Virus record (IMG/VR): IMGVR_UViG_3300045988_069682
Coordinates: 4,222-68,221 of that record
Source of the DNA: a virus
Strand: one strand, 5' to 3'
Length of the DNA: 64,000 nucleotides
Shown: in pieces, positions 11,124 through 52,290 of the stretch
How the letters are laid out: each line of letters starts with the position of its first letter
Numbering within the stretch: the stretch's first letter is position 1
Translations under genes and position numbers: made by a program
Notes under the pieces: generated by a model
Told to the model about the DNA's origin: nothing
The model's database searches: none
The model's input: only the letters and a program-made list of their open reading frames with translations

Positions 11124-12266
11124 ATGACAAAATATCGAGAAGGCTCTATATATTACGAAACAAACAGAGGCAAATGGCACGCTTCCGTCGCCGACCCGCA
11201 AGGTCACAGAACGCACAAAAGGTTCGACACGGAAGTGGAAGCAAACGCTTGGCGCTTGAGCATGGCAGCGAAATACATCAAGGGTAATTATGTTGCGAAA
11301 AGCGACATGACTCTAGGGACATGGATTTTGCAATATCTCAGCATATTCGCTAAATCTAAAGTGAGAGAAAAGACCTTCTTGAACTACGCTAATACCGCTG
11401 CGCATATTAATGAAACATTGGCAGACGTAGAGCTGCAAAAACTTTCACCCATTGCAGTCCAGTCCTATATCAACAACGCAGACATGACAGACGGCATGAA
11501 AGACAGATTGGTAAAACTGCTTTGCCGTGCGTCAAAAAAAGCCATTGCAACAGGGCTGATAGAAAAAGACTTCATGGCTGGGGTAGAAGTGCTCAAACCT
11601 GAGCCGAAAGAAGTAGAGATTTTCTCCCCCGAAGAGCTGAATATAATTATGGAAACCATTGACAGCGACGCAAGACTTCGCAGGCATCATCTGCTTATTT
11701 CCGTTGCAATCGCGTCTGGCTGTCGGATGGGAGAGATATTGGCCCTAACACCACAGGATTTAGATGGAGATGCTATAAAAATCAACAAAAGCCTAGTGGA
11801 AGTTAATGGCGTAGCAAAGCTTCAACCACCAAAGACCAAAGCAGGATACAGGAGGATTCCTTTGCCGAAGAATATAATGGCAGAGCTTTATCAAGCTGCA
11901 TATGCTCTTAAAGACGAGGAAATCATCAGAAACGCCAAAGGCAACCCGTGCTTAACTACTAACATCGACAAGACGTGGAAACGGATATTGAAGAAAGCGG
12001 GAATTCCTTACAGAAAATTTCATTGTCTGCGCCACACTCATGCGTCGATGCTGCTTGCTGCAGGTGTGCCTATATTGGAAGTAGCAAAGCGTCTGGGGCA
12101 TTCTCGCCCTAGCCACACATTAAACCTCTATGGTCATGCTATTCCCGGCTATGACAGCCAAATGCCATCGCTTGTAGAGAAAGTTTTCAGTTTAGGAAAC
12201 GGCAATCATGAAGATATTCTTGCCGCATCTTGCCTTGCTTTGCCCTCAACAACCGAAAAAAGTTGA
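11124..12266 (+). CDS. int: tyrosine integrase
   Basis: Catalytic region ...GCRMGEILAL...HCLRHTHASMLL...LGHSRPSHTLNLYGH (R..HxxR..Y). The attP lies about 90 nt downstream. Confidence 0.95.
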   Translation: MTKYREGSIYYETNRGKWHASVADPQGHRTHKRFDTEVEANAWRLSMAAKYIKGNYVAKSDMTLGTWILQYLSIFAKSKVREKTFLNYANTAAHINETLADVELQKLSPIAVQSYINNADMTDGMKDRLVKLLCRASKKAIATGLIEKDFMAGVEVLKPEPKEVEIFSPEELNIIMETIDSDARLRRHHLLISVAIASGCRMGEILALTPQDLDGDAIKINKSLVEVNGVAKLQPPKTKAGYRRIPLPKNIMAELYQAAYALKDEEIIRNAKGNPCLTTNIDKTWKRILKKAGIPYRKFHCLRHTHASMLLAAGVPILEVAKRLGHSRPSHTLNLYGHAIPGYDSQMPSLVEKVFSLGNGNHEDILAASCLALPSTTEKS

Positions 12267-12398: not shown

Positions 12399-12541
12399 TA
12401 AATAGTGGTAAATATCACTGACACGGCTCAACCCCTTGTACAGCAAGGCTTTCGAGATTTTCGGGAGCCTTGTTTTATTTGTCTTATTTGCCATATTTTG
12501 CCCTATTTTTTCATACTATCTGCAACCAAATTTGAACCACA

Positions 12542-12575
12542 AAGCAGCCTAGTTTGCAGATTTACTAGGCTGCTT
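12542..12575. terminator. 12-bp stem-loop closing the cargo module / int region
   Basis: AAGCAGCCTAGT-N10-ACTAGGCTGCTT followed by TTAT. The U-tract is weak in either direction. Confidence 0.4.
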
Positions 12576-12591
12576 TTATAGTGGTTTCAAT

Positions 12592-13053
12592 TCATTCTTC
12601 TCTTTTTGCTCTCATGCCCGCTATCCACAGGTCAAACACTTTGCCTTCCGCAGCATCGGGGTCGCACATATAGGCTTTGGCCATTCTGACGTGGTTATTC
12701 ACATCGTTCCCCAGAACTTCCGCAAAATCGCTATGCAGCATATTCATAACGTAGTACCAGTCAGCCTTACATTGAATCCCTTGCTGGTCAGCAAGTTGGC
12801 TAGTTTGCTCATACGTCCAATGTTCACCGCATGTGCCGTCAACATTTTTCATTTTAGATACTGCCTTTTTTGCCAGTTCTTCATCGAAGTGCTGGCCATA
12901 AGCCACACAATGCAGCTTATATGCAGTGTCCCAAAACAATCTCGGACAGCGGCCGCGGATTTCCTCCAACGCTTCACAAACTATTTCTTCCATTTCCTTA
13001 ATCTTTTCCGGGTTGGCGCTTACTTGCTCCCAGTATTTCTCTAGCTTGTGCAT
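12592..13053 (-). CDS. cargo protein 5 (153 aa, Cys/Trp/His-containing, no recognised motif)
   Basis: ORF with a GGAGGCAGACACC RBS. The product is soluble and helical-looking. Confidence 0.65.
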   Translation of the reverse strand: MHKLEKYWEQVSANPEKIKEMEEIVCEALEEIRGRCPRLFWDTAYKLHCVAYGQHFDEELAKKAVSKMKNVDGTCGEHWTYEQTSQLADQQGIQCKADWYYVMNMLHSDFAEVLGNDVNNHVRMAKAYMCDPDAAEGKVFDLWIAGMRAKREE

Positions 13054-13066
13054 GGTGTCTGCCTCC

Positions 13067-13489
13067 TTATGCCATTTTTACAACACTCAGAGAAGCGTTA
13101 GTAATCGTGCCAGCGGCGGTCGCCTGTACTTGCAGCATGGAGTTGTTGTTAATTACGCAACAACTCGGCAAAACGCGAATCAGCGTAGCAAAGCTAACAT
13201 TATATGTATCGCCAGTTGCTCCTGTCACTGTCGCTTCCGCTCCCGGCACAGCCGCGCCATTGCGGACGAGCTGCAAGCCAATGTCGCCAGCGGCAGTCGG
13301 TGTTACATCGGCGTTCAGTGTCACGAGATACAGGCCTCGAATCAAGTTCACGGCGTTGCTGCCAGCGATATGCCCGATTGCCACGCCAGTCAGCAGATTA
13401 TTGGTAGGAAAATTCACGAATCCGTTCGCTGCCACGGCTTGCGCAGCGGTTGCGACGGTTGTTAGTGCGGATTTTTGATTGCAAATCAT
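13067..13489 (-). CDS. cargo protein 4, BclA-C-terminal / C1q-TNF-like beta-sandwich protein (tentative)
   Basis: ATG at 13489 (MICNQ...) with an AAAGGGGTG RBS. The pattern GLYLVTLNADV...LQLVRNGAAVPG...NVSFATLIRV...MLQVQAT...ASLSVVKM resembles BclA_C/C1q domains. Confidence 0.45.
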   Translation of the reverse strand: MICNQKSALTTVATAAQAVAANGFVNFPTNNLLTGVAIGHIAGSNAVNLIRGLYLVTLNADVTPTAAGDIGLQLVRNGAAVPGAEATVTGATGDTYNVSFATLIRVLPSCCVINNNSMLQVQATAAGTITNASLSVVKMA

Positions 13490-13513
13490 TTGTTTCACCC
13501 CTTTTGAAAGCAA

Positions 13514-13537
13514 TAGGGACGGCTTGCACCGTCCCTA
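13514..13537 (-). terminator. intra-module hairpin/attenuator
   Basis: TAGGGACGG-N6-CCGTCCCTA, followed on the minus strand by TTGCTTTC. Confidence 0.4.
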
Positions 13538-13569
13538 AAACACAGTGCAGTTGATGCACATATCTTGTC

Positions 13570-14292
13570 TTAACCTACATTGTAAGCGCAGCCACAAGCG
13601 CCAGCTACGTTAGCAGCGACGCTTTGATACGGACTAGATGTAATGTAAGCGGGCTGCGGGTAAGGTCTCAGCGTACCGATAAGGTTAGCGCTCTGAGCCT
13701 GTTGGGATAACTGGAAGTTAGCGGTCTGCAAATCACGGTCGCGGTCTGCGAGTTTGTCACGCAGGTCTTGAATCTGGTTGGCAATCAGCACTGCTCTGGT
13801 CTTTTCGCCGTCCTCTTTCACTGCGTTAACAATATCACAGGTGTTGCGCGCGTTTTCGTAACGTACTGCGTCAATGTTTCGGTTAGTTTCGCAGCAGCAC
13901 TGTTGCTGTGCAAAGCGATTCTCCGCAAGCTGGTTGCCAAGTTGATAACCTGTCTGCATAAGGTCACGTTGAACGCCGTTAAAGCCATTAAGCATGGTAG
14001 TGTTTTGGGCATAAAAGCCGTCACACAGGCCGTTTTGAACACCGCGGATGCCGTCTTTAATGTCTTGCATTGAAAACTGGTCAGCAATCTGGTCGCGCGT
14101 CATAGAGCCGTTTGCAAAGATTTCAGCGCCCATGTTGCCACGATTGTTCCAGTTGCCTCCCCAACCGCCCATCATTACGAAAATAATGAGAATCCAAGCC
14201 CACCAGCCGCCGCCGAAGCCCATGCAGTCGCCATAGCCGCGGTTCATGTCCATTACAGGTACTACACCTGCGCCACCGTTTTCTAAAGTCAT
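13570..14292 (-). CDS. cargo protein 3, Gly/Trp-rich TM + Cys-containing coiled-coil protein
   Basis: AAAGGAGTG RBS. GFGGGWWAWILIIFVMMGGWGGNW, then QQQCCCETNRNIDAV...NTCDIVNAV..., a coiled coil, and a C-terminal GACGCAYNVG. Confidence 0.7.
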   Translation of the reverse strand: MTLENGGAGVVPVMDMNRGYGDCMGFGGGWWAWILIIFVMMGGWGGNWNNRGNMGAEIFANGSMTRDQIADQFSMQDIKDGIRGVQNGLCDGFYAQNTTMLNGFNGVQRDLMQTGYQLGNQLAENRFAQQQCCCETNRNIDAVRYENARNTCDIVNAVKEDGEKTRAVLIANQIQDLRDKLADRDRDLQTANFQLSQQAQSANLIGTLRPYPQPAYITSSPYQSVAANVAGACGCAYNVG

Positions 14293-14340
14293 TATTGTTC
14301 ACTCCTTTCGGTGAAAATATCTTATAACACCTTGTGCGCA

Positions 14341-14565
14341 TCAAAGTGTTAAGCCAAAATTAGATAGCATCTGGCGAAGCTGTTCGTCGCTCATGCCACG
14401 TTGCTTCGCAAGATTGCGTACAGTTTCTTTCAACTGCATCTCGTTTTTGCCTTGACCCATCTGCATAGCGCGCCCCATCATGGGATTTTGCTGTGCCATT
14501 TGCGTCAGCATCTGCATAGGATTACCACTATTCTGTAACATCGCCATTATTTGCATCGGGTTCAT
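14341..14565 (-). CDS. cargo protein 2, 74-aa Met/Gln-rich peptide
   Basis: AGGAGG RBS 8 nt upstream. MNPMQIMAMLQNSGNPMQMLTQMAQQNPMMGRAMQMGQG... Confidence 0.6.
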   Translation of the reverse strand: MNPMQIMAMLQNSGNPMQMLTQMAQQNPMMGRAMQMGQGKNEMQLKETVRNLAKQRGMSDEQLRQMLSNFGLTL

Positions 14566-14962
14566 GGTTCATGCCTCCTAGCTGTTTCTCTAACTTATCC
14601 ACACGTTGAATCAAGTTATCCACACAACTTCGTTCAGCGTATACAACTTGCTTCTGCTCCTGCGGATTACTTAATTGGTAAACTCTGAATACAGGCAGCC
14701 CGTTGAGGTCAATAGACTTCTCGTAAATCTTTCCCTCCGCCGGGCATGGGAAGAAGGTGCTGCTGCCGTCAAGGTCTATCTGAGCAGCCTTTGCTTCATC
14801 TATACCAGTCACCACTCTGCCTTTTAACGCTTGCGGCATCTGGCTCATAGGCATTTGCGGTTGCTGATACATCTGCATCTGTTGCTGCAAATAATTTAAT
14901 CGCTGTTGCATCTGCGGCGCAGCTCCCACATAAGGATTCGGTGCGTATTGTTGTCCGTACAT
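14528..14962 (-). CDS. cargo protein 1, Q/M/P-rich N-terminus + conserved-looking C-domain
   Basis: ATG at 14962 (MYGQQYAPNPY...) with a GAGGTGATAACA RBS. It follows a strong terminator. Confidence 0.6.
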   Translation of the reverse strand: MYGQQYAPNPYVGAAPQMQQRLNYLQQQMQMYQQPQMPMSQMPQALKGRVVTGIDEAKAAQIDLDGSSTFFPCPAEGKIYEKSIDLNGLPVFRVYQLSNPQEQKQVVYAERSCVDNLIQRVDKLEKQLGGMNHEPDANNGDVTE

Positions 14963-15026
14963 TGTTATCACCTCACACTTATATTTTGCGATATTTTTGT
15001 TAAATCGTTCTATCAATATTCCCTCA

Positions 15027-15356
15027 TCATTCAGACATTTGTTTTTTATTTAACGCATAAAAAAATAAGCCCCTTGAGCATACGACACAAAGTCGTATAC
15101 CCAAGGGGCTTCGTTTTATTCTAGATTTCAAAACACGTAAAACAGACTCATATGCAGCAGCAACATCACGTTCAACAGTCTTATCGGAAATATTCATTTC
15201 CATACCAATCTGGTAATTCATCAGTCCATCGACAAATCGCTTCTCGCAGATAACGTATTGCCGAGGACTGACTTTTGCTTCGTGCAGCACGGCGTAAAAT
15301 TCTTCTCGCGTCGAATTATGCAGCCAGTCCCTTGCACGCTTTTTGAAATCATCCAT
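15027..15356 (-). CDS. small sigma-70 region-4-like / HTH regulator
   Basis: VSPRQYVICEKRFVDGLMNYQIGMEMNISDKTVERDVAAAYESVL resembles sigma r4 / LuxR-type HTH. The last ~30 codons run through the terminator. Confidence 0.45.
   Translation of the reverse strand: MDDFKKRARDWLHNSTREEFYAVLHEAKVSPRQYVICEKRFVDGLMNYQIGMEMNISDKTVERDVAAAYESVLRVLKSRIKRSPLGIRLCVVCSRGLFFYALNKKQMSE
15059..15111 (-). terminator. strong intrinsic terminator (minus strand)
   Basis: Stem AAGCCCCTTG (15067-76) pairs with CAAGGGGCTT (15102-11), with an inner hairpin. A7 on the plus strand (15059-65) gives U7 after the stem on the minus strand. Confidence 0.8.
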
Positions 15357-15357: not shown

Positions 15358-15789
15358 TTATGTTGCGATTGCCACCGCTAAAGCGCCGCCTAGCAATACC
15401 CACGCTATATTTCGCTGTGCCTTAATTATTTGTTGCTGCTTTTTTACCTCTTTCGCGTATAGTTCTAGTGAGTCGTTGGCAGTCTGCAATAGCAGCTCGT
15501 TGCTGCTCGATTGTTGCTTCAATGCTGTCAGCTCTGCTTGCAGCTTCTCGGTTTGCGCTTGCGCTTCGTTCAAGGCTGCTTGTGACTTCGCCAGCTCTGC
15601 TTTCAGCGCTCTGCAATCCCTCGCTAATTTGATGTTGCTGGCTGATAGCTGCTCCAACCTCGTGTCTAACAGCGTCAATTCGCTCTCCGTTATCGTGTAC
15701 TCGGCTTCCTGCGAAGAAGCAGAGGCAGGCAAAGGCAAGGCCAGCAATAAGCAGAATCCAGTGGCTTTTAATAAATTCTTTAGCTTCAT
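15358..15789 (-). CDS. secreted coiled-coil protein with C-terminal TM anchor
   Basis: Signal-like MKLKNLLKATGFCLLLALPLPASA, heptad coil, and C-terminal IAWVLLGGALAVAIAT. Its stop abuts the next ATG. An alternative frame (15422..15793) is also open. Confidence 0.5.
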   Translation of the reverse strand: MKLKNLLKATGFCLLLALPLPASASSQEAEYTITESELTLLDTRLEQLSASNIKLARDCRALKAELAKSQAALNEAQAQTEKLQAELTALKQQSSSNELLLQTANDSLELYAKEVKKQQQIIKAQRNIAWVLLGGALAVAIAT

Positions 15790-15848
15790 TCATTGTTTAC
15801 CTCATGAGATACAACTGGGGGACAAATTGTCCCCCAGTTAAAAGGAAA

Positions 15849-17144: not shown

Positions 17145-20100
17145 TTAAATGTCAAATTTGTCGCCATATTTTTTCAAGCAAAGCTGTGCGACCTTTTGTT
17201 GCTTTGCTCGGTTTTTATCAACCAGCATCCTCTTTTGCGCTGGGGTGTATTTGGGGTTTGTTGTAATATCCCTAATCTCTTTTTGGAGCTTGGAGATTGT
17301 GTTTGCCGCAGTATTAACGCCAGATACAGCGACGGTAGGTTTACCCTTCTTGCCGTAACCAGCCTGCCATTTCGCAGATGCCTCTTTGAGCTGATAGAAG
17401 TCATTCATGGTTCTGGTAAGGTTCATGTCGTTGACAACGAAGTCACGGACGAACGCCATTTCTGAAAGCTTCTTTTCTGGCAGATTGCGCTTTTCGGCAA
17501 TCAGCAAGTCTGGAGCTTGCCATAAGAACATGCCCATAGTGCCTGTATAACCACGCCAGAGATTGTCAATTTTTACAGGAGACAACTTCATGATTGGGTT
17601 GTCACCCAAAGCCTTACTCATTTCACTGGTGTATGGGCCATATTGCAATTCGTCCGGCAGACGTTCCTGTGACTTGCTCACAATGGGCTTGCCACGGAAA
17701 AAGGAGTAATTTGTAATCCACTCAGCCAGTGGCAGAAACAGAGTAGGAATAACGCCCGGCATCAGTGCGTCTCGTGCTTGGGTGCGCCAGTTTGCCATAG
17801 CCTTCGGGTCTTGACCGTTAGCCGTATCGAGCATAGCTTCCGCGCCAGAGCCAAACAGAATACCAGCTTCTTGCGGTTTGGGGATGCGAATACCATTTGG
17901 CAATATCCAGTTGGTCATCTTGACGTTCGGGTCAAGTTCCTTATACCAATCCTCATCGTGATTCCACAGCCACAGCACTATGGACGGCAGAACTATATAG
18001 GTACCGATGCGGAGTAAAGTTCTTCTCGGGTCAGCCTTAAACATTCTATACAGCTTATCGCCGCCTTGAATACATGCGTTGAAGAACGGTACCATACGGT
18101 TGATTTGCTGACCTGTAGCACCGCTGCGGCCAAAGTTAAGAGTAATCTCTACTGCGTCGTAAGCTGCTTGGTCTACGCTCTTGCCTTTCTCTCTCGCCCG
18201 CATGAACTCGCCCATACGGGTGCCAGCTTCGGCAAGGTTGCTAATCCATTCCAGACCTTCTATCGGTTTGTGGAATATACCTTTGATAATATCTAGCAAG
18301 CCAAGCTTCTGCCATTTTTTACCGCCAGCCATACTTTCAAGGCTACGCATAACTGATTCGCCATCGCCATAGAAGTTGGACGAGATAACGCCACTTGCAT
18401 TAAACTCGCTTCTCAACTGCTGATTATTGAGCAATGCGTTCATGCCGCGAATACTGTCGTAAATTGGAACGAAGCCGTTCTTGGAGGCGATTCCTGCAAA
18501 CAATGTATCGCGAATGAGGTTGCGAAGAATAAAGGACGGAGACATTGTAGAACCAGTTCTCAGCCATTGAGCTGGCTTAGTCAGTAGAGCCATTTCGATT
18601 TCCACTAACGGCTTTACCGCAGCAGTAATAGCTGGGTACATCTCAGGGATTGTCTGATAGGAGTGCTTCTCGCCGTTGAACATTACCGTAAAGATGCAGT
18701 TCTTGGCATCGCCGCTATTGCCCTTAACCTCCTTGATGTAGTCATCGAGCTTGTATTTATTTGCCTGTTTAACGGCATACTGGCCAACTCTGTTACGCTC
18801 TGCCTTCTGTGTCAATGCGTTGATAGATGTAACAATAGTTCTGAGTGGCGGCACTATGTCGCGTTCGGAACCTTCGCTGCTACGATTCTTTAACGGGTCA
18901 GACACGTTCGCTAGACCTTTGCCAGAGTTAATCTGGTCGATGAAACTGTCAACAGCAGCGGTGTCGCTGAAATCACGCATCAACGGGCAATAAGCCTTGT
19001 AACGAGATTTGGTTGCTAAGTATCTGTCCCCGGTAATCAAGCCAGTGTTGTACAGAATATCCAGCATGTTGTCAGTAATGCCTTTGAACATCTTGGCATA
19101 TTCTTTGAAACCAACAGGAGCTTCTTTGATGACCTGCCGAATTTCCTGCTCAGTCATACCGCCCGGAAATTTATAAGGCTCAAAGATAGGCTTATCACCA
19201 TGCGAGCCTTTCTTTTCCCATTCGGCTACACTGCGGTCGTAGTCAAGTCTATGGTTTTGCGCGGACTCCAACAGGCTTCTGGCAACCAAATAATTTTCGA
19301 TTGCGCTGATGTGTTCTTCGAGTTCCGCTTTGCCTTGCGGATTAGTGGATTTAACGTAATTGGTAAATCGGCCAGCCTTCATATCTGTGCCGATTTTCTC
19401 CATGAGCATCTGCAAGGAAACCATGTTCTTGATGCCATATTTGTTTGCCGCCTGTTTCAACTCATCTGCATTGCCTTCCAGCAGAGCCATTGCCATGCCA
19501 GAAGCGCTATTCGCTGCCATGTTCATGCGGCCAAGGATGGTGTTAGCTCCGTCGATTTTCTCGCCGCTCGCCTTTGCGATTGCGTCATCGAGCAGATGCA
19601 AAGCGTCATACTTGTCAACGAAGTGTTTGTAGAATTGGCTCTTGGCATCGACTATCCACTCTTTAACCTTTTGGGTTCTGGTCTTAGGTTCCTCTCTGGC
19701 AATTCTGGAGCCGAGCTTCTGCGCTGCATTTGCGGTTTTTTCACCCTCATGGCGCTTATTGACGTAGGTACGATTCGGCAGTCCGTCGTCAATCTTTTCG
19801 ACAACTTCTTTGCCATCTTTACCCAACCTTACAACAGCTCCAGCTAGAGAGAAGCTTTCAATCTCTTTAGCGTGTAGCTTTTTACGTAAAGAGCGGATTT
19901 CTGCCGCACGCAGTTTCGTGCGCTCTTTTTGCTTCTCCCCTTTGTCTTTAAGGTATTCGGCAAGTTCCTTTTGATGCTCGTTCATAATGGCGGTAATTCT
20001 ATTGTCGCCAGCGCCAGCAGCATAGGCTTCCTCTAACTTACGCTTATAAGCTTCGTTAATACCTGTAATGCCTGGGTCTTGAGAGCGAGGCTTGCTTCGA

Positions 20101-23100
20101 GCAGAATATTTACAGGGATTAGTTTGACGAGCATTGACAAGGTCTTGCTTGTGTAGTATACTTTCGTCAGAAGCCCGCTTGCGGATAAGGCCTGTTAAGG
20201 TGTCGGTTCTGGCATCCTTAGCCGCCTTAGCCCAAGCGAGGCTTTTTTTGCTGTCTAAATATAATAATTCCCCGTTATTTTCAAGAGCGTTTATAAAATA
20301 CTGGTAGCTCGGTTTAGCTCCGCCTACGCCAAACGCAGTTTGCGGCATGTTGACCACAGTACGCTTGCGCTCAACATCGACTTCCAATTTTACTGGAACA
20401 ACAACAGTAGCTCCGTACTCGTTTTTTACTCCTAGCACTAAAACTCTTTTGTTAGGAAATTCTTTCTTAACCCCTTTAACATCCTCAAAATCTTTGAGAA
20501 TCATCAAAGGTTCTGCCATAGCTTTTGGGATTTGTTTAATTACGGCTGGTGTCATTCCCGGATGCTTAGTTTTAGTTGAATGGCCAAAAAACCCAGAAGA
20601 AATTTTCAAAGGATATTGCTTCGCTCCAGTTAAAACCAAAGCCAATGGCGTTTGTCTCATGAAATCCACAGTTTCAAACTTATGTTCTTCAAACCACTTT
20701 TTCGGATTCTTCGACCACTCATCTACCATTGCAGCAAATCTATCTGAATCCTCGTCAATCTTTTTCTGTAACGCCTCATCAAGTTTTGATTTTTTTGCTT
20801 GGTGCTTATCGCCGTCGCTGTTTCTTTTGCTGCCCTCATCTCCCCAAACCTCACCAAGCTCGATTCTACGCGCTAAATCATGGAAGTTATCAACTTTCTC
20901 GAACATCGCTTGAGCTTTCTTGATAAAATCATAAACCTTGCGCATGAGCTTCGCTACCAATCGTTGCAGCTTGTTTTTGGCAAGAATCATTCTACCCCAT
21001 GCGGTCTTTTGCAGTTCGGTTTCATGCAGTTTGGTAAACAGAGCGGCCTTTCCGCCAACGCGATTGGCTCTCAGCATCATTCTGCCCCAAGGTGTTTTTT
21101 GCAGCTTCTCAATTTCGGATTTGGTGAAGTCGGTTATGTAACCATGCTCACGAGCAGACACGAAGTTGCGCACTGCGTCAGCAGCGATTTCCTCTGCGTC
21201 TTTCTCAATACCATACTCTTCGGCAATCTTCTCTGCTCTGTCAAACAGGATTTTCTTCTCCTGCTCGTTGAGTGCCAAATCAATCGCTGCATGAGTAGCT
21301 TCGTGAGCCTCAGTATTCTCTCTGGAGTCCAAGGAAACACTGATGATACCTTCAACGTCAGAACTGTACATCGGGCGGTAGTAACCCTCGATAGTCATAT
21401 CCGCATCGTCAGCTATGCCATGTTCTTTTCTGGCGCGCTCGGCTTCTGCTTCATTTACAAGAAGATTGTTTTGAATATCGAGGGTAAATTTGTTACCACC
21501 TTTAGTAATGATAGTGAACGTGCTATTGTCATTGACTTGAATATCATCAGTACCGAAGAGTTTTTTGCACTTCTCTAAGATTTCATCACGAGAGCGCAGG
21601 ATTTTTTCGCCAAATTCGGATTCACGGACGGAGAACTTAACCTCCGCTTTTTGATTAGCCTTGTGCAAAGCTGTGTCCAATGCCTTTTGACGTACAGCTC
21701 CGATTTTGCTGTCGCTGTCATAAAACTCGATATGAAGCCCCGCATCCATCATAGCTTTTACTTCTTTAGTATCCGCATATTTCTGTGGTACAACTGCGGC
21801 TTTAAAGTCTCCAAGGTTGACGCTTCGTTGACTCTTGGCTTCAAAATATTCGGTTTTGACCAGTTTCTTTACGCTATGGAAAAGATTCAAAGCTCGCTCA
21901 TTAGGCAAAGCGTTAACAAGATTAGGGTTTTCTTTGAACGCCTCTTTGCCAACAAGTTCCTCCATTAAGTGTTTTTCGGACGGGTCATCTGAATTTATGA
22001 CTTTTGCAATAGCAATCAAAGCATCATCCCCAACTTTGTCATAATTACTTCTTATGGTTGGGTTGTCGAAGTCTCTTGAAAGACTACCAGACGCTTTGTG
22101 CATATCATCTACAGACTTAAACTCTCTGGCTACAAACGCCAAAAATTGTCCATAGGTCATTCTTTTTCCTTCAGACCAGTGTGCTCTCGGATATGCTTGT
22201 TTTAACATGTAGCGTTCTAGATTTTCTGTTGTAAAAGGAACATCCTTTCCTTCGGCCGGGTTAAAGAAATAGCTTTCGCCGTCGATTATTTTCTCTTTTG
22301 GAATCGTTGGAGTCCAAGCATCGCGCTCATAAACCTTCGCCGCTCCTGTGCTTGGGTCGATAAGTTCTTTACCCCCAATCAAAGTTATTTCTCCGTAGTT
22401 GCTGTACGGCTCTCCGTCGCGTATAATCGCAAGACTTGGCGACACAAAAGTACCATTTGTTTTGCCAAAGATAACATCGCTAAGAGATTCCATGGTCAAA
22501 TTGTGCAAAGCTACAAGTTTTGACGAATCTCTTGTCTTGTTAACATACCGCTTATTTGAATTATCAGTACCTTCTGGCTTTGAATCATAATCTGCATGTG
22601 ATGCCTTATTTTCAACAGCCACGGCATTGCTAGTTTCTTTCGCTGCTTTTGCGATTTCTTCGACCGCTTCATGCTTGTCATAAAGCTCTTGATACTTTTG
22701 TAAAGCTTGAAGCATTGCATCTGCATATTTTTTTACAGCATCAATGGTTTCGTCGCTCAATTCGTCATCTTTCAGACCTTTTATAAGCGCATCAAAATCT
22801 TCATCGAGTTTGCCGTCAGTCGCGTAATCAGCCGTTACGGCTGCCGCAATACTGTCTCTTCCAATATCGGCAACATCTTCTTTTTCTTGCTCGCTCAGCA
22901 CTGAATCTAAAATATTTAATGCTTCTTTAGGCAGCGTTTCCAGTTCGTCCGGATTACCCTCTATTAAACCACTTGCCGCCCTAGCAACAATATTGGCATC
23001 AGTATTGCCATTTTTTACTTCTGCCAATGCGACGCGCGCATCGTGTTTTGCACGTTTTTCGTCAAATTCCAACCATATAGAATTTCTTGCAGCAGCCAAA

Positions 23101-26100
23101 GAAGTGTTTTGCTCACTTGTATATTCATCATCACTCTTTGAAGCATTTGCAAGATTCATTTGGAAGTCACGCGCTTCCGCAGCCCCAACGTGACTGTCGC
23201 CGCCCAACATGGTGTCAATCTGATTGCGCAAATCATCTAATTCTTTTATGCGCTCGGCAAATGGTTTGCTAACTTCGTCCTTGCCGCTGAATACAACCTC
23301 GTTAATGATTCGCTTAACATCAGCAGGAATCTCAAAATCAAAAGTATAAGCGTTGGCCCACTTCTTAGATTTTTCGGATTCCCTGCCTAATGCTTTTTGT
23401 ATTTTCAGCATAAATTTTTCAATATAAGATTGAATTTCTGCCTTTAAATCTGCAAACAGTTTATTGAGCCACGGAATAGGGGTATCTGCATCGGCTATAT
23501 GTTTTATGATAGCCTGAGAGAAACGCTCTTCGTCAACAGGCCCGCCGTCGCTTTTAGAGCGTTGCTCTGAGTTAAAGTAAGGAGCCTGGGTATACTCTTT
23601 AGACGTTTTATCTGCCCCATTTCCTATCCATTCTCTCAGCCGTTTAAAATCATCTTTGAGTTTTTGAGGTGCAAGCGGAGACTCTGCAACCAAAGCAAAG
23701 TCTGCAAAGAACATGTGCGCCATTTCGTGGAACAATGTGGTTGTACTAGCTTTTCCAGAAAAAGCCAATCTTCCTCTTGCAGTTTTGTCAGCAGTAAATA
23801 TTTGAGTTGTGAGTCCAGCAGTGCCCGCCGAAAAGCGATTATCAATTTTATCATCAAAAAATGCAAATTTATAACGCTGAGCAAACGCCAAAGGGGTATA
23901 GTTTGCGCCGAGATACTTATTGAACAGCCTAGACCACGTTTGCGCTCTAAAAGCCAAAAGCTGTGCGGCAGCTTCAATAGCATTTGTGCTGAACCGTTTC
24001 TTGGAATCATTGGAAAGAGAAGATTTTACCCAATCATAGACCTCTTGGCCTTCTTTGGACAAAGTCTCGTTGCCGTCAGCCATTGCGTCAGTAGTTGCAG
24101 ATTCAAGAATCTTTTTGTCGATTTGCTCCTGCTCCTTTTTGACTGCTGCTACCTGTTTATCATATACGGATTTTCTATCGTCAACTCGCAAAAAGTCGCC
24201 CTTGCCAGCGCTGTCTTTGCTAGCTTCCAGTTTCCTTTCCAATTCACTCTTGATTTTTTCAAGCGAATCAAGAGCCTCTTCCAAAAATATCTTGCCTTCC
24301 TTATGCTGTTTGACAACATTTTCGGCGGCTTCCTTGGCATCTTTAAGTGCCTTTTGGTAAAACTCTTTTCTCGGAGCCTCAGCTTCTTCTCTAGCTCTTT
24401 TATCAGCTTCGAGTTGTTTCCTGTGCTGCTCTTTAGCATCTGCTTCTCGGTCGATGAACATTTGCTTGCGAGTTTCTTCTATTTTCTCGATGCAGTCTTT
24501 TGAAACAGTAGGAACCTGTCGTTCACTACGCGCATAAACACGTTTTAAAGCATTTACCTCCTTGGAAGCCTCGTCTATGCTAGTTTCACCATTACGCCAC
24601 TTATCGCAGATTCCCTTAACTTGTTCCAGCAAGGTCGCCTCGTTGTATTTTTGAATAAGTTCAATGTTATCAACGGGGGTTTTCTTGTTCATTAGATACA
24701 AGCCATTGTTATCTGTGTTCAGTCCTTTAACGATAGCAGAAACATCTGGCTTTGTTTCAATGTCTGCTTGCTGCCTAATTGGCGGTTCGCCTTCGCCGCT
24801 GCCAGAACCAACATCAGCAGTTGATGTATCGGTTGTACCTTCGGTGTTATCAGTATTCGCGTTTTTGAGCTTGTCGAGCACATCCGTAAGAGTAACCTTT
24901 GGAACTGTCGGCAACTCAACGGGCTTGCTTGTGTCAATGCCATTGCTCGCAAAGAAATTTTTAACGCTCGCAGATGCCGCATCTAATCCCGGTGTCCCTT
25001 TATTGCCATTGATATTATCTTTTTGGTGCTTTTCAAGAAAATCTTTAACCTTCGATTGTCCGTAAGGAGCGTAATAAAAGCCACCAGAATCCCAGTGGAA
25101 TCCAGCTTGGCCTAAAGATTTTCTCACATCAAGAGGAAGCTTGTCGGATGGAGCAATCCATACCATGTTGTCTTTTTGGCGCAGGATAGGGTTTAACTCC
25201 TTGCCACCGACTTGAATTGTTGGCAATTTGTCTGCCTTACCAACTTCATTCTTGTTAGTGTTGTCGTCCTGCTTTGGTTTTTTACCTTTCGCCGGGGTTA
25301 CTGTATTACCATTGGCATTGTTATCAGAAGCATCTTGAACAAGATACTTCTTCAAAAATTCGTCTAAAGCTGGCGTATTTTCAGCAATAGAGCCTTCCTC
25401 TTTGCTCTTCCATGCAAAGCCAGCTTTCTTATATGCTTGCTTTTCTTCTTTGGTGAATTTAACACGCTTTTCCATTTTTAAAGAAACTCTGCCATCCGGC
25501 AAAGACCTTACTTCGCCTTTAACACCATTTAAGCGAATAGTGCATAGCAGTTTTCCAACATCAGTAGTCGATGTATCGGTTTTATCATCGGCATTAACAT
25601 CATCTGCGTTTTTGAGCTTATCGAGTACATCCGTGAGATTAACCTTAGGAGCCTTCGGTAGTTCAACGGCCTTGCTTGTGTCAATGCCATTGCTCGCGAA
25701 AATCTCACGAAGCGTCTGGACTTCGGTTTTCGGTTCTACGTCTATTTTTGCCCCAGAGAGTTTCTCCAAAGCGGTTTTCACCTCTGCGTTATAAGGAGCT
25801 TTAATCGCTTTCGCATTGCCGTCATACTTAAAACCAGCTTCGTAGATGATTTTTCGTTGTTCGTCTGTGGTTTCGGTACCTTTAGGCCAAGAAATGGTAA
25901 CTGTTTTGCCATCGTCCGTCAGAATCGGAGTCAACTCTTTTTTGCCGAATTTAATTTTTGGGAGAGTTTTTTGCATCTCTTGTTCGCGTTCCTCCGGCTC
26001 AGCTTTAGGCTCAGTCTTAGGCTCGGCTTTAGGCTCGGCTTTAGGCTCAGCTTTAGGCTCAGTCTTAGGTTCAGCTTTAGGTTCGGCCTTAGGCTCAGCT

Positions 26101-28655
26101 TTAGGTTCAGCTTTAGGTTCAGCCTTAGGTTCAGCCTTAGGTTCAGCGATTCTATTAAGCGCAGCAGGAACCTTTACCCCTAGCTGTTCCGCAAGTTGCA
26201 TTAATCCGTTAATGTTAGCAGTTTCCGCAACTTTTGCAGCAGCGGCCTTTTTCTTTTTGTTAAGAACTCTGCTGTTTTTTATTGCGCTTTTCAAAACGCC
26301 GCGGAAGTTTTGTACTGCATGGTAGTCGTCATCAGCGCCAAGTTCCCATGCCGCAATGCCATTTTCAGCTGCATCCATAACAGCCGCTTTGCGTGGAGCA
26401 GTCAGTTTGCTAAACCATGCCCAAGCTTCTTCGTTTCCGTTCATTGCTGCATTGAATTTTTCAACAGCATCTTGATTGTCGTTTAAAAAGGTGCGCAACG
26501 CAGGAGCCGCTCTCAGTTGTCTAACGTCAAATCCTCCATTAGCGTTCAAAAAACGGTCGGAGCCTTTCCCCTTCTTTAAACCATCTAAGATAGCTCGTTT
26601 AGAACTTTCGTAACGAACTTTGGCCTGTGTGCCGTAGTTTGCAACGGTTTCTGCTACACCTGTGTTGGCTTCTGGAGGCACAGGGTACTGCGCTGCGTTT
26701 TTCTTGCCGTTGTTTTGTAACGAAGAAGGAGCCTTTGCACTATTTTTAATATTTTGTTGAAGCGCTCGTCCACGAGGCGGCAAATTGCTTGTATCGACAG
26801 CTAAGACTGTTCTCAGCCTTGCTACTTCTATATCGTATTGCTCTTTGCTTATTTCGCCGCGAGCGTATCTGCCAGCCAAATCGTTTACTTCTTGTTCATA
26901 TTCTGCTCTAAGTCTGCTCACATCTGCTTGCGAAGGCGTATCGTATCGCAAATTATAGCCTTTAAGTCGAGTGGCTGCTTCGTTCAGACGGGTTAATTGT
27001 TTATCTGCATCCCGACGGCTAACGCTGCCTAATTGTACTCTGTTTTCGATTTTAGCGCGTTTTTCTTCGGTCTTGCGGTCAACATCGCTATTTGCATATA
27101 CACTAGGCTTTTGCGGCATCGGCAAACCCAAAACAGGCTCTTGCTTGTTGATAGCTTTATCGACACTATCCATAGCAGCCTTATAGTTAATGCCAAAATG
27201 CTGTTCTGGCGGTCTGAAATTCATGTTGCCGCCCCGTGCCATCGCGTCAACCAAAGTGCTTGGGCTTGCGCTCATCTCGTCGAGTTTTCGCCTGGTCGCA
27301 AACATGTTTTGAATCGCATCAGAATCAATTTTTTCTTTTTGCTCAGCCCCATCCCAGCCGAATTTCATAGCAGTATTTTTAATCAATTCAGCGTCTCCGC
27401 TAGAATTAACTGCATCTATTTCGTTGCGCTGTTCGTCACTTAGGGATGGATGTTCATAAAGGCTATCGAGATATTCTTGCGCCTGTGCAACATCATCGTT
27501 CGTTGGCTGTACTTCGGGCTGAACCGATTGCTGTGTCTCAGCGGCAGCTATCTGTTCCTGCTCATTCTTGCTGTTGAGGTAGTTGGCACCAGCTCTCATC
27601 GCAGCGTTGCCGCCACCGATAGCCAAGCCGCCTACACCGCCAACGGCAGCCTGTTGCAATGCTTCGTCGCTCCACTGTAAAGGGTTTACCACGCCGAGCA
27701 AATTCTGCTTGCCTTGCGCATATTCATGGGTGGATTGTTGCATACCTTCTTCCCAAGCGTTTTGCAAACCTTCACGGGTAACGCTGCCTAGAATGGCCAT
27801 CATGCCTTCTTTGCCGATTTTTTTGCCGCCAGCTTTCTCTGCTTCCTTCAAGAATAATTTGCCCAAGCCAGCAGATTCAAAGGTGTTGCTTAAACCGAGC
27901 AGAGGCATCTGCAATGCGCCTACGATAAGAGCCTGTTTTCGTGCCTCGTCGATGTTCGCGCCACTTTCCAACGCTTCCGCACCAGCATTACCCATTTCAG
28001 AAGAAACTTCAACGGGGGTTTTCAAAATATTCAAAGCATAGAGCTTGCCCATAGGGCCATCCAACACCTTTGCAAGTTTGGGCATACCTGCTTTGGCGGC
28101 AGCTCTGCTCATGCCTCCGCTGATTTTACCTGCAAGGGCAAGGCCTCTAGCCGCGCCGCCAACACCTGCTGCACCACCAACGCCAAGAGCGCCGAGGGCT
28201 GCGCCGCCAGTTGCTGCAACGGCGGCAGTCTCTGCACCAAGGACGGCCGAAGAGCCGAGCATATTAGCAACGTCATATGCCGCACCATCGCCATTAGTCC
28301 AGTAGTCGCTGGCGAATGGAATCATATCTGCAATAGTATATTCTTTTTTGCGGGCGTTGTTCTGCATAGATTCACCCAACGCATTGGCTGTGGCACCGTC
28401 TCCAATGCCCATCAAGTTGCTCAACTGTGCTTGACCTTGCAGCACGCCCAAGGCACCGGATTTAAAGCCTCTGGTAAAACCCCAACTGTCATCTTGAAGC
28501 GCACCTTGCTGCGCTGTGGGCAGCGCGCTTTCGTCGAGGTTCATTTGTTTCATATAAGAATCGGCGTATTCATGTGCTGGCATGTTGCCTAACTTTCGCA
28601 TACGCTCGGAAAAGTTTTTGTACCCTTCACTTGGGTTTTCGTAATCAAACATCAT
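17145..28655 (-). CDS. giant (~3,836 aa) multidomain virion/ejection ('polyvalent'-type) protein
   Basis: Single open frame of 11.5 kb. ATG at 28655 sits 8 nt after the upstream stop, with an AGGAGGAAC RBS. Contains Gly/Ala-rich hydrophobic N-terminal segments, 13 x (A/T)EPK, triplicated modules, and two HExxH motifs (LFHEMAHMF, EAHEATHAAI). Confidence 0.8.
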   Translation of the reverse strand: MMFDYENPSEGYKNFSERMRKLGNMPAHEYADSYMKQMNLDESALPTAQQGALQDDSWGFTRGFKSGALGVLQGQAQLSNLMGIGDGATANALGESMQNNARKKEYTIADMIPFASDYWTNGDGAAYDVANMLGSSAVLGAETAAVAATGGAALGALGVGGAAGVGGAARGLALAGKISGGMSRAAAKAGMPKLAKVLDGPMGKLYALNILKTPVEVSSEMGNAGAEALESGANIDEARKQALIVGALQMPLLGLSNTFESAGLGKLFLKEAEKAGGKKIGKEGMMAILGSVTREGLQNAWEEGMQQSTHEYAQGKQNLLGVVNPLQWSDEALQQAAVGGVGGLAIGGGNAAMRAGANYLNSKNEQEQIAAAETQQSVQPEVQPTNDDVAQAQEYLDSLYEHPSLSDEQRNEIDAVNSSGDAELIKNTAMKFGWDGAEQKEKIDSDAIQNMFATRRKLDEMSASPSTLVDAMARGGNMNFRPPEQHFGINYKAAMDSVDKAINKQEPVLGLPMPQKPSVYANSDVDRKTEEKRAKIENRVQLGSVSRRDADKQLTRLNEAATRLKGYNLRYDTPSQADVSRLRAEYEQEVNDLAGRYARGEISKEQYDIEVARLRTVLAVDTSNLPPRGRALQQNIKNSAKAPSSLQNNGKKNAAQYPVPPEANTGVAETVANYGTQAKVRYESSKRAILDGLKKGKGSDRFLNANGGFDVRQLRAAPALRTFLNDNQDAVEKFNAAMNGNEEAWAWFSKLTAPRKAAVMDAAENGIAAWELGADDDYHAVQNFRGVLKSAIKNSRVLNKKKKAAAAKVAETANINGLMQLAEQLGVKVPAALNRIAEPKAEPKAEPKAEPKAEPKAEPKAEPKTEPKAEPKAEPKAEPKTEPKAEPEEREQEMQKTLPKIKFGKKELTPILTDDGKTVTISWPKGTETTDEQRKIIYEAGFKYDGNAKAIKAPYNAEVKTALEKLSGAKIDVEPKTEVQTLREIFASNGIDTSKAVELPKAPKVNLTDVLDKLKNADDVNADDKTDTSTTDVGKLLCTIRLNGVKGEVRSLPDGRVSLKMEKRVKFTKEEKQAYKKAGFAWKSKEEGSIAENTPALDEFLKKYLVQDASDNNANGNTVTPAKGKKPKQDDNTNKNEVGKADKLPTIQVGGKELNPILRQKDNMVWIAPSDKLPLDVRKSLGQAGFHWDSGGFYYAPYGQSKVKDFLEKHQKDNINGNKGTPGLDAASASVKNFFASNGIDTSKPVELPTVPKVTLTDVLDKLKNANTDNTEGTTDTSTADVGSGSGEGEPPIRQQADIETKPDVSAIVKGLNTDNNGLYLMNKKTPVDNIELIQKYNEATLLEQVKGICDKWRNGETSIDEASKEVNALKRVYARSERQVPTVSKDCIEKIEETRKQMFIDREADAKEQHRKQLEADKRAREEAEAPRKEFYQKALKDAKEAAENVVKQHKEGKIFLEEALDSLEKIKSELERKLEASKDSAGKGDFLRVDDRKSVYDKQVAAVKKEQEQIDKKILESATTDAMADGNETLSKEGQEVYDWVKSSLSNDSKKRFSTNAIEAAAQLLAFRAQTWSRLFNKYLGANYTPLAFAQRYKFAFFDDKIDNRFSAGTAGLTTQIFTADKTARGRLAFSGKASTTTLFHEMAHMFFADFALVAESPLAPQKLKDDFKRLREWIGNGADKTSKEYTQAPYFNSEQRSKSDGGPVDEERFSQAIIKHIADADTPIPWLNKLFADLKAEIQSYIEKFMLKIQKALGRESEKSKKWANAYTFDFEIPADVKRIINEVVFSGKDEVSKPFAERIKELDDLRNQIDTMLGGDSHVGAAEARDFQMNLANASKSDDEYTSEQNTSLAAARNSIWLEFDEKRAKHDARVALAEVKNGNTDANIVARAASGLIEGNPDELETLPKEALNILDSVLSEQEKEDVADIGRDSIAAAVTADYATDGKLDEDFDALIKGLKDDELSDETIDAVKKYADAMLQALQKYQELYDKHEAVEEIAKAAKETSNAVAVENKASHADYDSKPEGTDNSNKRYVNKTRDSSKLVALHNLTMESLSDVIFGKTNGTFVSPSLAIIRDGEPYSNYGEITLIGGKELIDPSTGAAKVYERDAWTPTIPKEKIIDGESYFFNPAEGKDVPFTTENLERYMLKQAYPRAHWSEGKRMTYGQFLAFVAREFKSVDDMHKASGSLSRDFDNPTIRSNYDKVGDDALIAIAKVINSDDPSEKHLMEELVGKEAFKENPNLVNALPNERALNLFHSVKKLVKTEYFEAKSQRSVNLGDFKAAVVPQKYADTKEVKAMMDAGLHIEFYDSDSKIGAVRQKALDTALHKANQKAEVKFSVRESEFGEKILRSRDEILEKCKKLFGTDDIQVNDNSTFTIITKGGNKFTLDIQNNLLVNEAEAERARKEHGIADDADMTIEGYYRPMYSSDVEGIISVSLDSRENTEAHEATHAAIDLALNEQEKKILFDRAEKIAEEYGIEKDAEEIAADAVRNFVSAREHGYITDFTKSEIEKLQKTPWGRMMLRANRVGGKAALFTKLHETELQKTAWGRMILAKNKLQRLVAKLMRKVYDFIKKAQAMFEKVDNFHDLARRIELGEVWGDEGSKRNSDGDKHQAKKSKLDEALQKKIDEDSDRFAAMVDEWSKNPKKWFEEHKFETVDFMRQTPLALVLTGAKQYPLKISSGFFGHSTKTKHPGMTPAVIKQIPKAMAEPLMILKDFEDVKGVKKEFPNKRVLVLGVKNEYGATVVVPVKLEVDVERKRTVVNMPQTAFGVGGAKPSYQYFINALENNGELLYLDSKKSLAWAKAAKDARTDTLTGLIRKRASDESILHKQDLVNARQTNPCKYSARSKPRSQDPGITGINEAYKRKLEEAYAAGAGDNRITAIMNEHQKELAEYLKDKGEKQKERTKLRAAEIRSLRKKLHAKEIESFSLAGAVVRLGKDGKEVVEKIDDGLPNRTYVNKRHEGEKTANAAQKLGSRIAREEPKTRTQKVKEWIVDAKSQFYKHFVDKYDALHLLDDAIAKASGEKIDGANTILGRMNMAANSASGMAMALLEGNADELKQAANKYGIKNMVSLQMLMEKIGTDMKAGRFTNYVKSTNPQGKAELEEHISAIENYLVARSLLESAQNHRLDYDRSVAEWEKKGSHGDKPIFEPYKFPGGMTEQEIRQVIKEAPVGFKEYAKMFKGITDNMLDILYNTGLITGDRYLATKSRYKAYCPLMRDFSDTAAVDSFIDQINSGKGLANVSDPLKNRSSEGSERDIVPPLRTIVTSINALTQKAERNRVGQYAVKQANKYKLDDYIKEVKGNSGDAKNCIFTVMFNGEKHSYQTIPEMYPAITAAVKPLVEIEMALLTKPAQWLRTGSTMSPSFILRNLIRDTLFAGIASKNGFVPIYDSIRGMNALLNNQQLRSEFNASGVISSNFYGDGESVMRSLESMAGGKKWQKLGLLDIIKGIFHKPIEGLEWISNLAEAGTRMGEFMRAREKGKSVDQAAYDAVEITLNFGRSGATGQQINRMVPFFNACIQGGDKLYRMFKADPRRTLLRIGTYIVLPSIVLWLWNHDEDWYKELDPNVKMTNWILPNGIRIPKPQEAGILFGSGAEAMLDTANGQDPKAMANWRTQARDALMPGVIPTLFLPLAEWITNYSFFRGKPIVSKSQERLPDELQYGPYTSEMSKALGDNPIMKLSPVKIDNLWRGYTGTMGMFLWQAPDLLIAEKRNLPEKKLSEMAFVRDFVVNDMNLTRTMNDFYQLKEASAKWQAGYGKKGKPTVAVSGVNTAANTISKLQKEIRDITTNPKYTPAQKRMLVDKNRAKQQKVAQLCLKKYGDKFDI
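25996..26151. repeat. 12-bp tandem repeat (13 units) encoding (A/T)EPK
   Basis: GG(C/T)TC(A/G)G(C/T)(C/T)TTA units counted directly. In frame within the giant ORF. Confidence 0.9.
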
Positions 28656-28662
28656 GTTCCTC

Positions 28663-37849: not shown

Positions 37850-37863
37850 TGTTTCACCTCGCT

Positions 37864-51891: not shown

Positions 51892-51902
51892 CCCGACCAG
51901 GC

Positions 51903-52277: not shown

Positions 52278-52290
52278 GGCGAATGACCAT

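Follow-up and report, generated by a model that had tools for sequence, protein, structure and literature searches.

We analysed a 64,000-nucleotide (nt) stretch of viral DNA (IMG/VR virus record IMGVR_UViG_3300045988_069682, positions 4,222 to 68,221; hereafter the window) and found that six neighbouring minus-strand genes, a small regulator gene that we call reg and five further genes that we call A to E, are a real and tightly conserved cassette (Table 1). All six open reading frames (ORFs), as placed by an earlier note on this stretch, were confirmed. That note had suspected an undescribed multi-gene system, and the suspicion is now supported more strongly than the note could know: the families recur in order across 68 loci, and a literature search for DUF7841, PF25223 and the PHROG numbers of the cassette found no paper naming these families. 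We propose, with a probability of roughly one in three, that A–E form a late, activator-gated, membrane-anchored complex that acts on the envelope of the infected cell. The architecture of the cassette and its coupling to late genes rest on comparative sequence data, from which we infer the molecular roles of A–E and their final function.

Recurrence of the cassette across gut viruses

Iterated hidden Markov models (HMMs) of the six families detected reg in 49, A in 62, B in 42, C in 68, D in 40 and E in 22 of the 68 loci. The detected families were always co-stranded and followed the order reg..A-B-C-D-E: A stood directly upstream of B or C in 62 loci, B lay between A and C in 42, D came after C in 40, and E was the final cassette gene in 22. 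Because the same families appear in the same order in dozens of independent loci, the grouping is far above chance, and the co-occurrence as a cluster in other genomes, to which the earlier note had tied its proposal, is found on a massive scale. The homologues of C fell into 6650 clusters at 90% identity, nearly all of them gut-metagenomic, and into 2114 clusters at 50% identity (E ≤ 1e-3); a scan with the C alignment, taking one genome per species, returned 56 loci. A nucleotide search of the module against phage records gave just one 71-nt match, so the conservation of the cassette is at the protein level.

The cassette was also seen in integrated form. On a Phascolarctobacterium contig of 545 kb, a prophage that shares the giant protein and the amidase of the window ends in reg, A, B, C, D and E, which are followed directly by the host genes for an ABC transporter and TonB/ExbBD. 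On a second metagenomic contig, an unrelated prophage (Baseplate_J, wedge proteins) ends likewise, beside host HSP20 and Mnh antiporter genes. Host genes start ~370–390 nt beyond E in the integrated relatives.

The carriers are podo-, myo- and siphovirus-type phages, and the host groups named for them include Negativicutes, Clostridia, Bacilli, Bacteroidota and Melainabacteria. Among the individual hosts are Phascolarctobacterium and Megasphaera, in which the closest relatives of the cassette occur, together with Ruminococcus, Oscillospiraceae, Lachnospiraceae, Anaerotruncus colihominis (complete genome) and Bacilli; further hosts are Prevotella (557-kb scaffold), Alloprevotella, Gastranaerophilales, Spirochaetaceae and Enterousia. 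Host names come partly from the binning of metagenome-assembled genomes, which can misplace phage contigs, and single assignments are thus soft while the breadth is firm. An A-B-C core was found in the C. perfringens phages XP41-N3 and vB_CpeS-17DYC and in lemur and rodent gut phages, and homologues of C in rearranged gene surroundings were found in the crAss-like phages cr116_1 and cr52_1 and in Bacteroides phage C3_41T2LP. No integrase or repressor was found among the 65 genes of XP41-N3. The presence of the cassette in phages lacking integrase and repressor and in crAss-like phages indicates that it is not tied to lysogeny alone. Clear C homologues with QCCC motifs are also encoded by two viruses recorded as infecting Methanomassiliicoccales (NC_092586.1, Caudoviricetes sp. 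vir215, locus L072, 4878–5759; also BK063680.1 / NC_134205.1); at these loci A, B, D and E were not detected with the family HMMs. As a separate observation, a tail protein and a reverse transcriptase lie as a pair directly upstream of the cassette in two viruses that are not related to each other, cr52_1 (L070, 1182–3713) and L072 (1052–4186). The pair suggests a diversity-generating retroelement, and its location may reflect chance at the end of the tail genes.

The map position of the cassette varies: it was found after lysis genes, after the integrase gene, after the receptor-binding protein gene, between capsid genes and among recombination genes. Its presence is patchy, in some and not all related phages, as in moron-type units. 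With C as query, tblastn hit only six Clostridium phage records; phiCP13O, described as closely related to vB_CpeS-17DYC (PMC10353432), was missing from them. Endolysin or holin domains were found within 4.5 kb upstream in roughly 16–18 of 44 loci, and likewise in most annotated phages. The literature on C. perfringens phages and on crAss lysis modules yielded nothing relevant to the cassette. The comparative data indicate that A–E together with reg are a self-contained accessory operon, transferred as one block from phage to phage.

Features of the cassette proteins

Each of A–E has its own Shine-Dalgarno sequence (A GAGGTG, B AGGAGG, C AAGGAG, D AGGGGTG, E AAGGAGG), which bears out the earlier claim that the genes restart with strong ribosome-binding sites. 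All five proteins carry conserved cysteines, and all lack signal peptides. A hydropathy and sequence check of A, B, D and E found no signal-peptide-like N-terminus and no lipobox, which leaves the cassette without a lipoprotein partner, and a hydrophobic, transmembrane (TM)-like segment (residues 23–41 by hydropathy) is unique to C among A–E.

C consists of a Gly/Trp-rich hydrophobic segment (~residues 23–45), a Gly/Asn-rich region and a ~90-residue helix; it also carries an invariant CCC, a Pro-rich stretch of the form RPxPxPAY and a C-terminal CGC. W33, C132–C134, C152, P212, P221 and C233 are invariant, and the protein matches phrog_16490 (6.1e-26). An AlphaFold2 model built with 88 sequences contained a short helix at 31–40 and a long helix at 119–208; its predicted local distance difference test (pLDDT) score was 48, and the model was used for secondary structure alone, with the fold search omitted for that reason. 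Measured against the two-component spanin, C fits the i-spanin half only (a TM segment plus a long helix), and the lipoprotein half is absent among A, B, D and E. Two impressions were set aside. The Pro-rich tail of C looks like an exosporium leader to the eye, and this likeness is not claimed, NCBIfam giving no match; a Met-rich motif like that of B, seemingly fused to the start of C homologues from crAss-like phages, Bacteroides and archaeal viruses, scored just 3–4 bits with an HMM of the B N-terminus.

A combines its Q/M/P-rich N-terminus with a conserved central domain (V..EA..DG..F..IY.K..G..Y) and a heptad-like C-terminal helix. It matches phrog_21718 (4.1e-11) and no Pfam family. The A and B genes overlap by 38 nt. 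B gave a sub-threshold match to SurA_N (6.7e-4 for the window protein) that recurred in five B homologues; an STI1/DP-like identity was rejected, as Pfam offered nothing for B beyond these SurA_N matches.

D aligned with profile positions 12–127 of the 128 of BclA_C (E = 1.1e-5, 25.7 bits, below the Pfam gathering cutoff of 38) and with PDB entry 9H38, the crystal structure of the C1q-like head of F-BclA (E = 3e-5 over 125 residues). This entry is the C-terminal head of the collagen-like tip protein F-BclA of F-ENA appendages (PMC12357932). D also matches phrog_20016 and phrog_30509 ('collagen like minor tail'). Neither GXY/collagen repeats nor a signal peptide was found in its 140 residues, and NCBIfam gave no family match for D and no exosporium-leader match for C or D. 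We considered D as a spare head for the collagen-repeat fibre of the same phage and rejected the idea, as the two show no similarity. Where D is absent, its place after C is often taken by D', an alternative Cys-rich beta protein of ~120–139 amino acids (aa) found at L001:6706–7083, L003:6735–7118, L005:6674–7033, L006:6944–7363 and L011:9697–10086. D' has a Cys-rich N-terminus (e.g. MTCNRRCNCCNR) and a conserved core, ...AQSIP...GN.L.ADQIRSR..Y, and had no match in Pfam, PDB or the functionally annotated PHROG entries.

E is a clear member of DUF7841 (PF25223, E = 5.6e-25, 88.3 bits against a gathering cutoff of 25.2), and its AlphaFold2 model reached a pLDDT of 93.4. Foldseek of the E model against PDB found no fold neighbour (best E = 1.6, TM-score < 0.3), and in BFVD the neighbours were exclusively DUF7841 proteins, many of them crAss-like. 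N70, W79, D98, N104, S108 and D109 of E are invariant and D131-P-D133 nearly so, and the polar residues of this set (N70, D98, N104, S108, D109 and D131-P-D133) suggest a ligand or metal site. PDB sequence and profile searches with A, C and E gave nothing meaningful.

Regulator, terminators and predicted late timing

The start of reg lies 2 nt past the stop of the upstream late gene. The window protein matches GerE (8.4e-5) and Sigma70_ECF (1.3e-4) in Pfam and sigma70-ECF in NCBIfam (3.4e-5), and among the 41 members of the family 29 match Sigma70_r4_2, 25 Sigma70_r4, 14 GerE and two DUF1492. These profile matches, for the window protein and the family alike, place a region 4.2-type helix-turn-helix (HTH) in reg, in agreement with the small sigma-r4-like regulator named in the earlier note. 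The protein descriptions given there held, with one correction to the reg ORF: its relatives terminate near residue 81, and the window ORF is 28 codons longer because it has no stop codon at the family's usual end and its frame crosses the terminator hairpin. The 28 extra residues (KSRIKRSPLGIRLCVVCSRGLFFYALNKKQMSE) are the translated hairpin (15027–15111, minus).

The terminator had been described as very strong (15059–15111), and it is: the stem comprises 20 bp, of which 10 are GC pairs, and the folding energy is -38.4 kcal/mol where shuffled sequences give -12.0 ± 2.7 (z = -9.7). A terminator between reg and A was found in 22 of the 27 loci in which the two genes lie at most 400 nt apart. 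As for the two hairpins reported downstream, the one after E was borne out (-28.4 kcal/mol, z = -6.0), while that between C and D is real but moderate; the 70-nt stretch that holds it folds at -26.3 kcal/mol (z = -3.6), its T-tail is weak, and it is possibly a partial terminator or a processing site. With terminators at 15111–15067 and ~12576–12541, the cassette is bounded on both sides, as moron-type units are, and the description of a discrete, terminator-bounded module stands.

On its upstream side reg is closely joined to late genes. Among 39 non-redundant loci, 23 have at most 30 nt between reg and the preceding ORF on the same strand, and the scan flagged a terminator ahead of reg in 8 of the 39, of which ~2–3 were judged convincing. 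The gene is usually the last of a late or lysis operon. Because reg as a rule follows the other genes of that operon without an intervening terminator, expression late in the lytic cycle is favoured over expression in the lysogen. The earlier note had set expression confined to the late virion genes against its own lysogenic-conversion reading, and the gene arrangement appears nearer to the former than to the latter.

Of 58 loci, 8 have a 6-mer repeated three times between reg and A; among shuffled sequences, 1% did. Seven of the eight have a spacing of exactly 11 + 11 bp, six of these triplets lie 16–42 nt past the reg stop, and the motif varies by locus (TAGGGA, GAGTAT, TGGCAC, GGCA). Perfect or near-perfect 6-mer triplets 11 bp apart were seen between reg and A at L010:9250–9290, L030, L031, L046 and L028. 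Such locus-specific triplets could let co-variation reveal the DNA-recognition code of the reg-type sigma-r4 family. The window has three direct repeats at the same spacing in the gap between the terminator and A, which are candidate reg sites. The -10-like hexamer upstream of A has TATAAG/TATAAT-like counterparts upstream of A in L008, L014, L016, L021, L024, L025 and L031.

The simplest reading of this layout is a relay from the late operon through reg and the repeats to A–E. The late operon would yield reg, and its transcript would halt at the strong terminator; reg would then bind the short direct repeats, one helical turn apart, just behind the terminator and switch on a promoter without a -35 element. 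A–E would form a 'late-late' class, produced only once the late operon has been expressed. The layout makes it most likely that the cassette is turned on very late in infection, and the strong insulation suggests that the products of A–E are harmful to the cell if made earlier. Alternatively, reg could be a Q-like antiterminator, with late transcription reading through the strong terminator into A–E and no separate promoter. A small regulator gene followed by a strong terminator and then target genes is the arrangement such a factor would call for; there are weak Phage_antitermQ matches (0.077 for the window reg, 2.7e-4 or weaker for 4 of 41 members, and 0.015 for phrog_79), and the sigma-70 scan found no consensus promoter behind the terminator. 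These matches are, however, far weaker than those to region 4, so that a Q-family fold is not supported for reg, and the -10-like hexamers upstream of A recur. The variant fits less well than the relay because the family is plainly sigma-70 region 4 and not Q, and because the direct repeats lie downstream of the terminator and not at a promoter upstream of it; we regard it as distinctly unlikely.

The genes around the cassette belong to an SU10-type (podovirus-like) phage (Table 1). Just upstream of reg, at 15358–15793 (minus), two long ORFs in different frames overlap almost totally, each encoding a coiled coil. The longer product (143 aa) has in addition a signal-like start and a hydrophobic end, the shorter (123 aa) a TM segment at its N-terminus. 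Together they may encode a spanin-like pair, suited to a diderm host of the Negativicutes, and it is also possible that one of the two is spurious. The 3847-aa ORF contains PKAEPKAE tandem repeats and HEMAH/HEATH metalloprotease-like motifs. Its relative at L008 carries SLT, PBECR1, ResIII/helicase, methyltransferase and LPD38 domains, on account of which we consider the ORF product a 'polyvalent' protein, probably injected. The structural operon also holds a PT-HINT (pretoxin Hint) protein gene (30487–31611, minus) and a tRNA-Thr(TGT) gene (42763–42838, minus). At 51000–62200 an 11-kb block on the plus strand has a G+C content of ~0.40, against 0.44–0.50, and a positive GC skew; some of its ORFs match phrog_23767, phrog_10276 DNA repair and phrog_30118, and it is probably the other early arm of the phage.

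Table 1 Features of the cassette and of the surrounding window
Feature	Position	Strand	Description
reg	15027..15356	minus	stand-alone sigma-70 region-4 / LuxR-type HTH; functional part ~residues 1–81
Intrinsic terminator	15057..15111	minus	stem plus T-run 15111–15067, directly after the functional part of reg; closes the late operon
Direct repeats GAATGAT / GAATATT / GAACGAT	15004..15032	minus	11 + 11 bp spacing, in the terminator–A gap; candidate reg sites
TATAAG	14978..14983	minus	-10-like hexamer upstream of A; putative promoter
A	14528..14962	minus	144 aa; Q/M/P-rich N-terminus, 15% Gln
B	14341..14565	minus	74 aa; 19% Met, 16% Gln; repeated NPM/NPxQ motifs, small helical C-terminal part
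C	13570..14292	minus	240 aa; signature protein of the cassette
Hairpin between C and D	13514..13537	minus	10-bp, GC-rich, weak T-tail
D	13067..13489	minus	140 aa; free-standing C1q/TNF-like (BclA_C-type) domain
E	12592..13053	minus	153 aa; DUF7841, all-alpha, 8 helices
Hairpin terminator after E	12541..12576	minus	closes the cassette; faces the convergent integrase gene
Late operon of SU10-type phage		minus	~35 kb, from terminase (50092) through Amidase_2 to reg; includes small membrane proteins
Terminase	50092-48746	minus	head of the late operon
Portal, SU10-type	47953-45719	minus	late operon
Capsid protein, SU10-type	44101-42899	minus	late operon
Collagen-repeat fibre	35933-37870	minus	late operon; 645 aa, six GXY stretches
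3847-aa ORF	17145-28688	minus	late operon
Amidase_2 endolysin	16486-15980	minus	late operon
Tyrosine integrase	11124-12266	plus	converges on the cassette from the other strand

Proposed function and relation to known systems

In the proposed model, C would enter the cytoplasmic membrane through its Gly/Trp-rich segment and oligomerise through the ~90-residue helix, with the Met-rich B as a holdase for the hydrophobic segment and A as a soluble partner that joins through its C-terminal helix. D, probably a trimer like the usual C1q/TNF-like heads, and/or the alpha-helical E would complete the complex, and the conserved cysteines would lock the assembly through disulfides or metal. The target of the complex would be the infected cell's envelope, at the very close of lytic growth, where it could serve membrane disruption, egress or the timing of lysis, to name examples; it would not remodel the surface of a lysogen or spore. 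A late lytic function that is harmful if premature is suggested by the coupling to late genes, the strong insulation, the single-pass helical Cys protein and its soluble, signal-less partners.

Several points weigh against this model. It is hard to picture one envelope function serving monoderm and diderm bacteria as well as archaea, and the carrier phages already own holin, endolysin and spanin-like genes. Signal-less C1q-like heads and Cys-rich beta proteins suit particles or released structures at least as well. The pLDDT of C is low, and its topology and oligomeric state are predictions only; the chaperone idea for B depends on the sub-threshold SurA_N matches. As for the switch, the strict repeat pattern is limited to a minority of loci, the repeats of the window are weak and fail the strict 6-mer test, and between the terminator and A the consensus sigma-70 scan gave no complete promoter; the TATAAG there stands only 16 nt from the start codon of A and would leave hardly any leader. 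In XP41-N3, moreover, 2.6 kb and about a dozen small genes separate A from the upstream reg, so reg is not always dedicated to A–E and its pairing with the cassette appears frequent, not absolute.

The strongest rival, which we consider possible though doubtful, is a virion-associated accessory module whose products are made late and join or decorate the particle. C could be a coiled-coil stalk with D as its C1q-like head, stabilised by disulfides outside the anaerobic cell and serving gut adhesion or particle stability, or C could be a membrane-active protein delivered to the next host. C1q-like heads are typical of fibre tips, and the likeness of D to fibre heads (phrog_30509 and the F-BclA tip head) favours such a module, as do the cysteines and absent signal peptides of A–E, a host range unrelated to envelope type, and several map positions: between the minor and major capsid genes in Dulem virus 35, right behind the receptor-binding protein in Dulem virus 36, and between lysis and capsid genes or amid tail genes in crAss-like phages. 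Depositors have labelled C homologues 'spike protein/glycoprotein' and 'outer capsid protein/viral fiber', labels that are unverified predictions, and no virion proteomics was found. The cassette is, however, patchy among close relatives, as the tblastn search with C illustrates; its carriers have three tail types and therefore share no surface for docking; a dedicated regulator and insulation set it apart from ordinary structural genes; and in XP41-N3 and C3_41T2LP it lies amid recombination or early genes. Exclusion or inter-phage competition, in which a membrane complex made from the prophage or during infection would block entry, abort other phages or counter defence, is unlikely. Accessory genes typically occupy the end of a prophage, many superinfection-exclusion proteins are single-pass membrane proteins as C appears to be, and the cassette resembles defence and counter-defence cargo in its mobility and its patchy spread over phage lineages. 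A defence-system identity was nevertheless rejected: the PADLOC scan of all six proteins gave nothing above noise (noise-level matches to the HTH of reg, none for A, C, D or E), and neither Pfam nor NCBIfam showed an enzymatic or nucleotide-binding domain in the cassette proteins, which upholds the earlier remark that no defence, nuclease or NTPase domain is recognisable. Five conserved, structural-looking proteins would be unusual for exclusion, the coupling of reg to the late operon speaks against it, and hosts with unrelated envelopes and incoming phages run contrary to a receptor- or injection-specific block.

Lysogenic conversion, the function that the earlier note preferred, did not hold up, and we now consider it highly improbable. 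Here the prophage would express BclA-like and Cys-rich coat-type proteins under a GerE-like regulator and so remodel the surface of the cell or spore. The cassette is insulated by terminators and lies next to a putative attP core, D is BclA_C-like, reg has an HTH that matches the GerE/LuxR family, proteins without signal peptides would suit assembly in the mother cell, and the Cys-rich D' stands in for D at some loci. However, the nearest relatives of the cassette and many others are in non-sporulating lineages or their phages: the hosts of the carriers include Phascolarctobacterium, Megasphaera, Prevotella, Alloprevotella, Gastranaerophilales and Methanomassiliicoccales as well as those of crAss-like phages, none of which, to our knowledge, are spore formers. 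Carriers without integrase and repressor exist, reg is joined to late lytic genes, and D has no collagen stalk, nor was an exosporium leader matched in C or D.

Stated more broadly, and still at less than even odds, the cassette would be a new virus-encoded machine, common to tailed viruses whose hosts span at least five bacterial phyla and possibly include gut archaea. A sigma-r4 activator from the late operon would trigger the assembly of a cysteine-locked complex, built from a membrane anchor, a coiled coil, a head of C1q type and the new-fold DUF7841 protein. The complex would act at the very end of infection in a step of egress, particle finishing or persistence after lysis for which no system is yet known. 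It is very unlikely that a conserved five-gene unit with its own regulator is dispensable baggage. The partners of C travel with it across phage morphotypes and host phyla, crAss-like phages included, and crAss-like phages rank among the most abundant viruses of the human gut. Once solved, the role of the cassette could expose a step of wide occurrence among gut viruses that does not depend on the envelope, be it release, particle stability and adhesion, or competition, and thousands of 'hypothetical' genes would be annotated together. E offers a confidently predicted fold without a solved relative, and no cassette protein has a described role. The layout of regulator, terminator and repeats would be a compact and portable late-timing switch. 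The interest of the cassette rests on its prevalence, its phylum-crossing conservation, this switch and the lack of a known analogue.

We know of no system that combines the parts of this cassette, and each of the known systems compared here resembles it in part. One example of late accessory operons or 'morons' is mom, an operon at the right end of phage Mu that the Mu protein C activates. Like these, the cassette adds terminator-bounded genes at the end of the prophage map, is patchy among related phages and appears gated by an activator from the preceding temporal class, which would suit products harmful when made early. It differs in comprising five conserved genes and a regulator where mom and morons have one or two genes, in encoding no enzyme and in crossing host phyla, and its timing is predicted from gene layout. 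The genes of the small sigma-like late activators of Gram-positive phages (RinA, ArpU and DUF1492 types) closely precede the small terminase gene, and their products turn on packaging, morphogenesis and lysis. These activators share with reg a small, phage-encoded, stand-alone sigma-70 region-4-like HTH, followed by a terminator and a predicted target promoter; reg, in contrast, is shorter (~80 residues) and comes last in the late operon, 35 kb downstream of the terminase and before an accessory cassette.

Rz-type i-spanins, FtsL and P2 LysB are bitopic coiled-coil proteins. C shares with them a single N-terminal hydrophobic segment, a long helix with conserved cysteines and, often, a location near lysis genes, and in cr52_1 the cassette stands directly behind a gene annotated as LysB/FtsL-like. 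Unlike i-spanins, C has no lipoprotein partner, is found also in phages of monoderm hosts and in the viruses recorded from archaea, and is larger, with a Gly/Asn-rich region, a Pro-rich motif and a CGC tail, and the window has separate spanin-like candidates in the overlapping ORFs upstream of reg. The heads of BclA and F-BclA (PMC12357932; 9H38) align with D over ~125 residues and share its lack of a signal peptide. D differs from these proteins in having no collagen stalk, exosporium leader or N-terminal docking peptide, and it is encoded by phages whose hosts are mostly non-sporulating. Trimeric fibres built of an anchor, a stalk and a head include TNF-family ligands, BclA, reovirus sigma1 and collagen-like phage tail fibres. 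The cassette may follow the same logic, with C as N-terminal anchor and helical stalk and D as C1q/TNF-like head, although here stalk and head are separate polypeptides and their pairing is putative.

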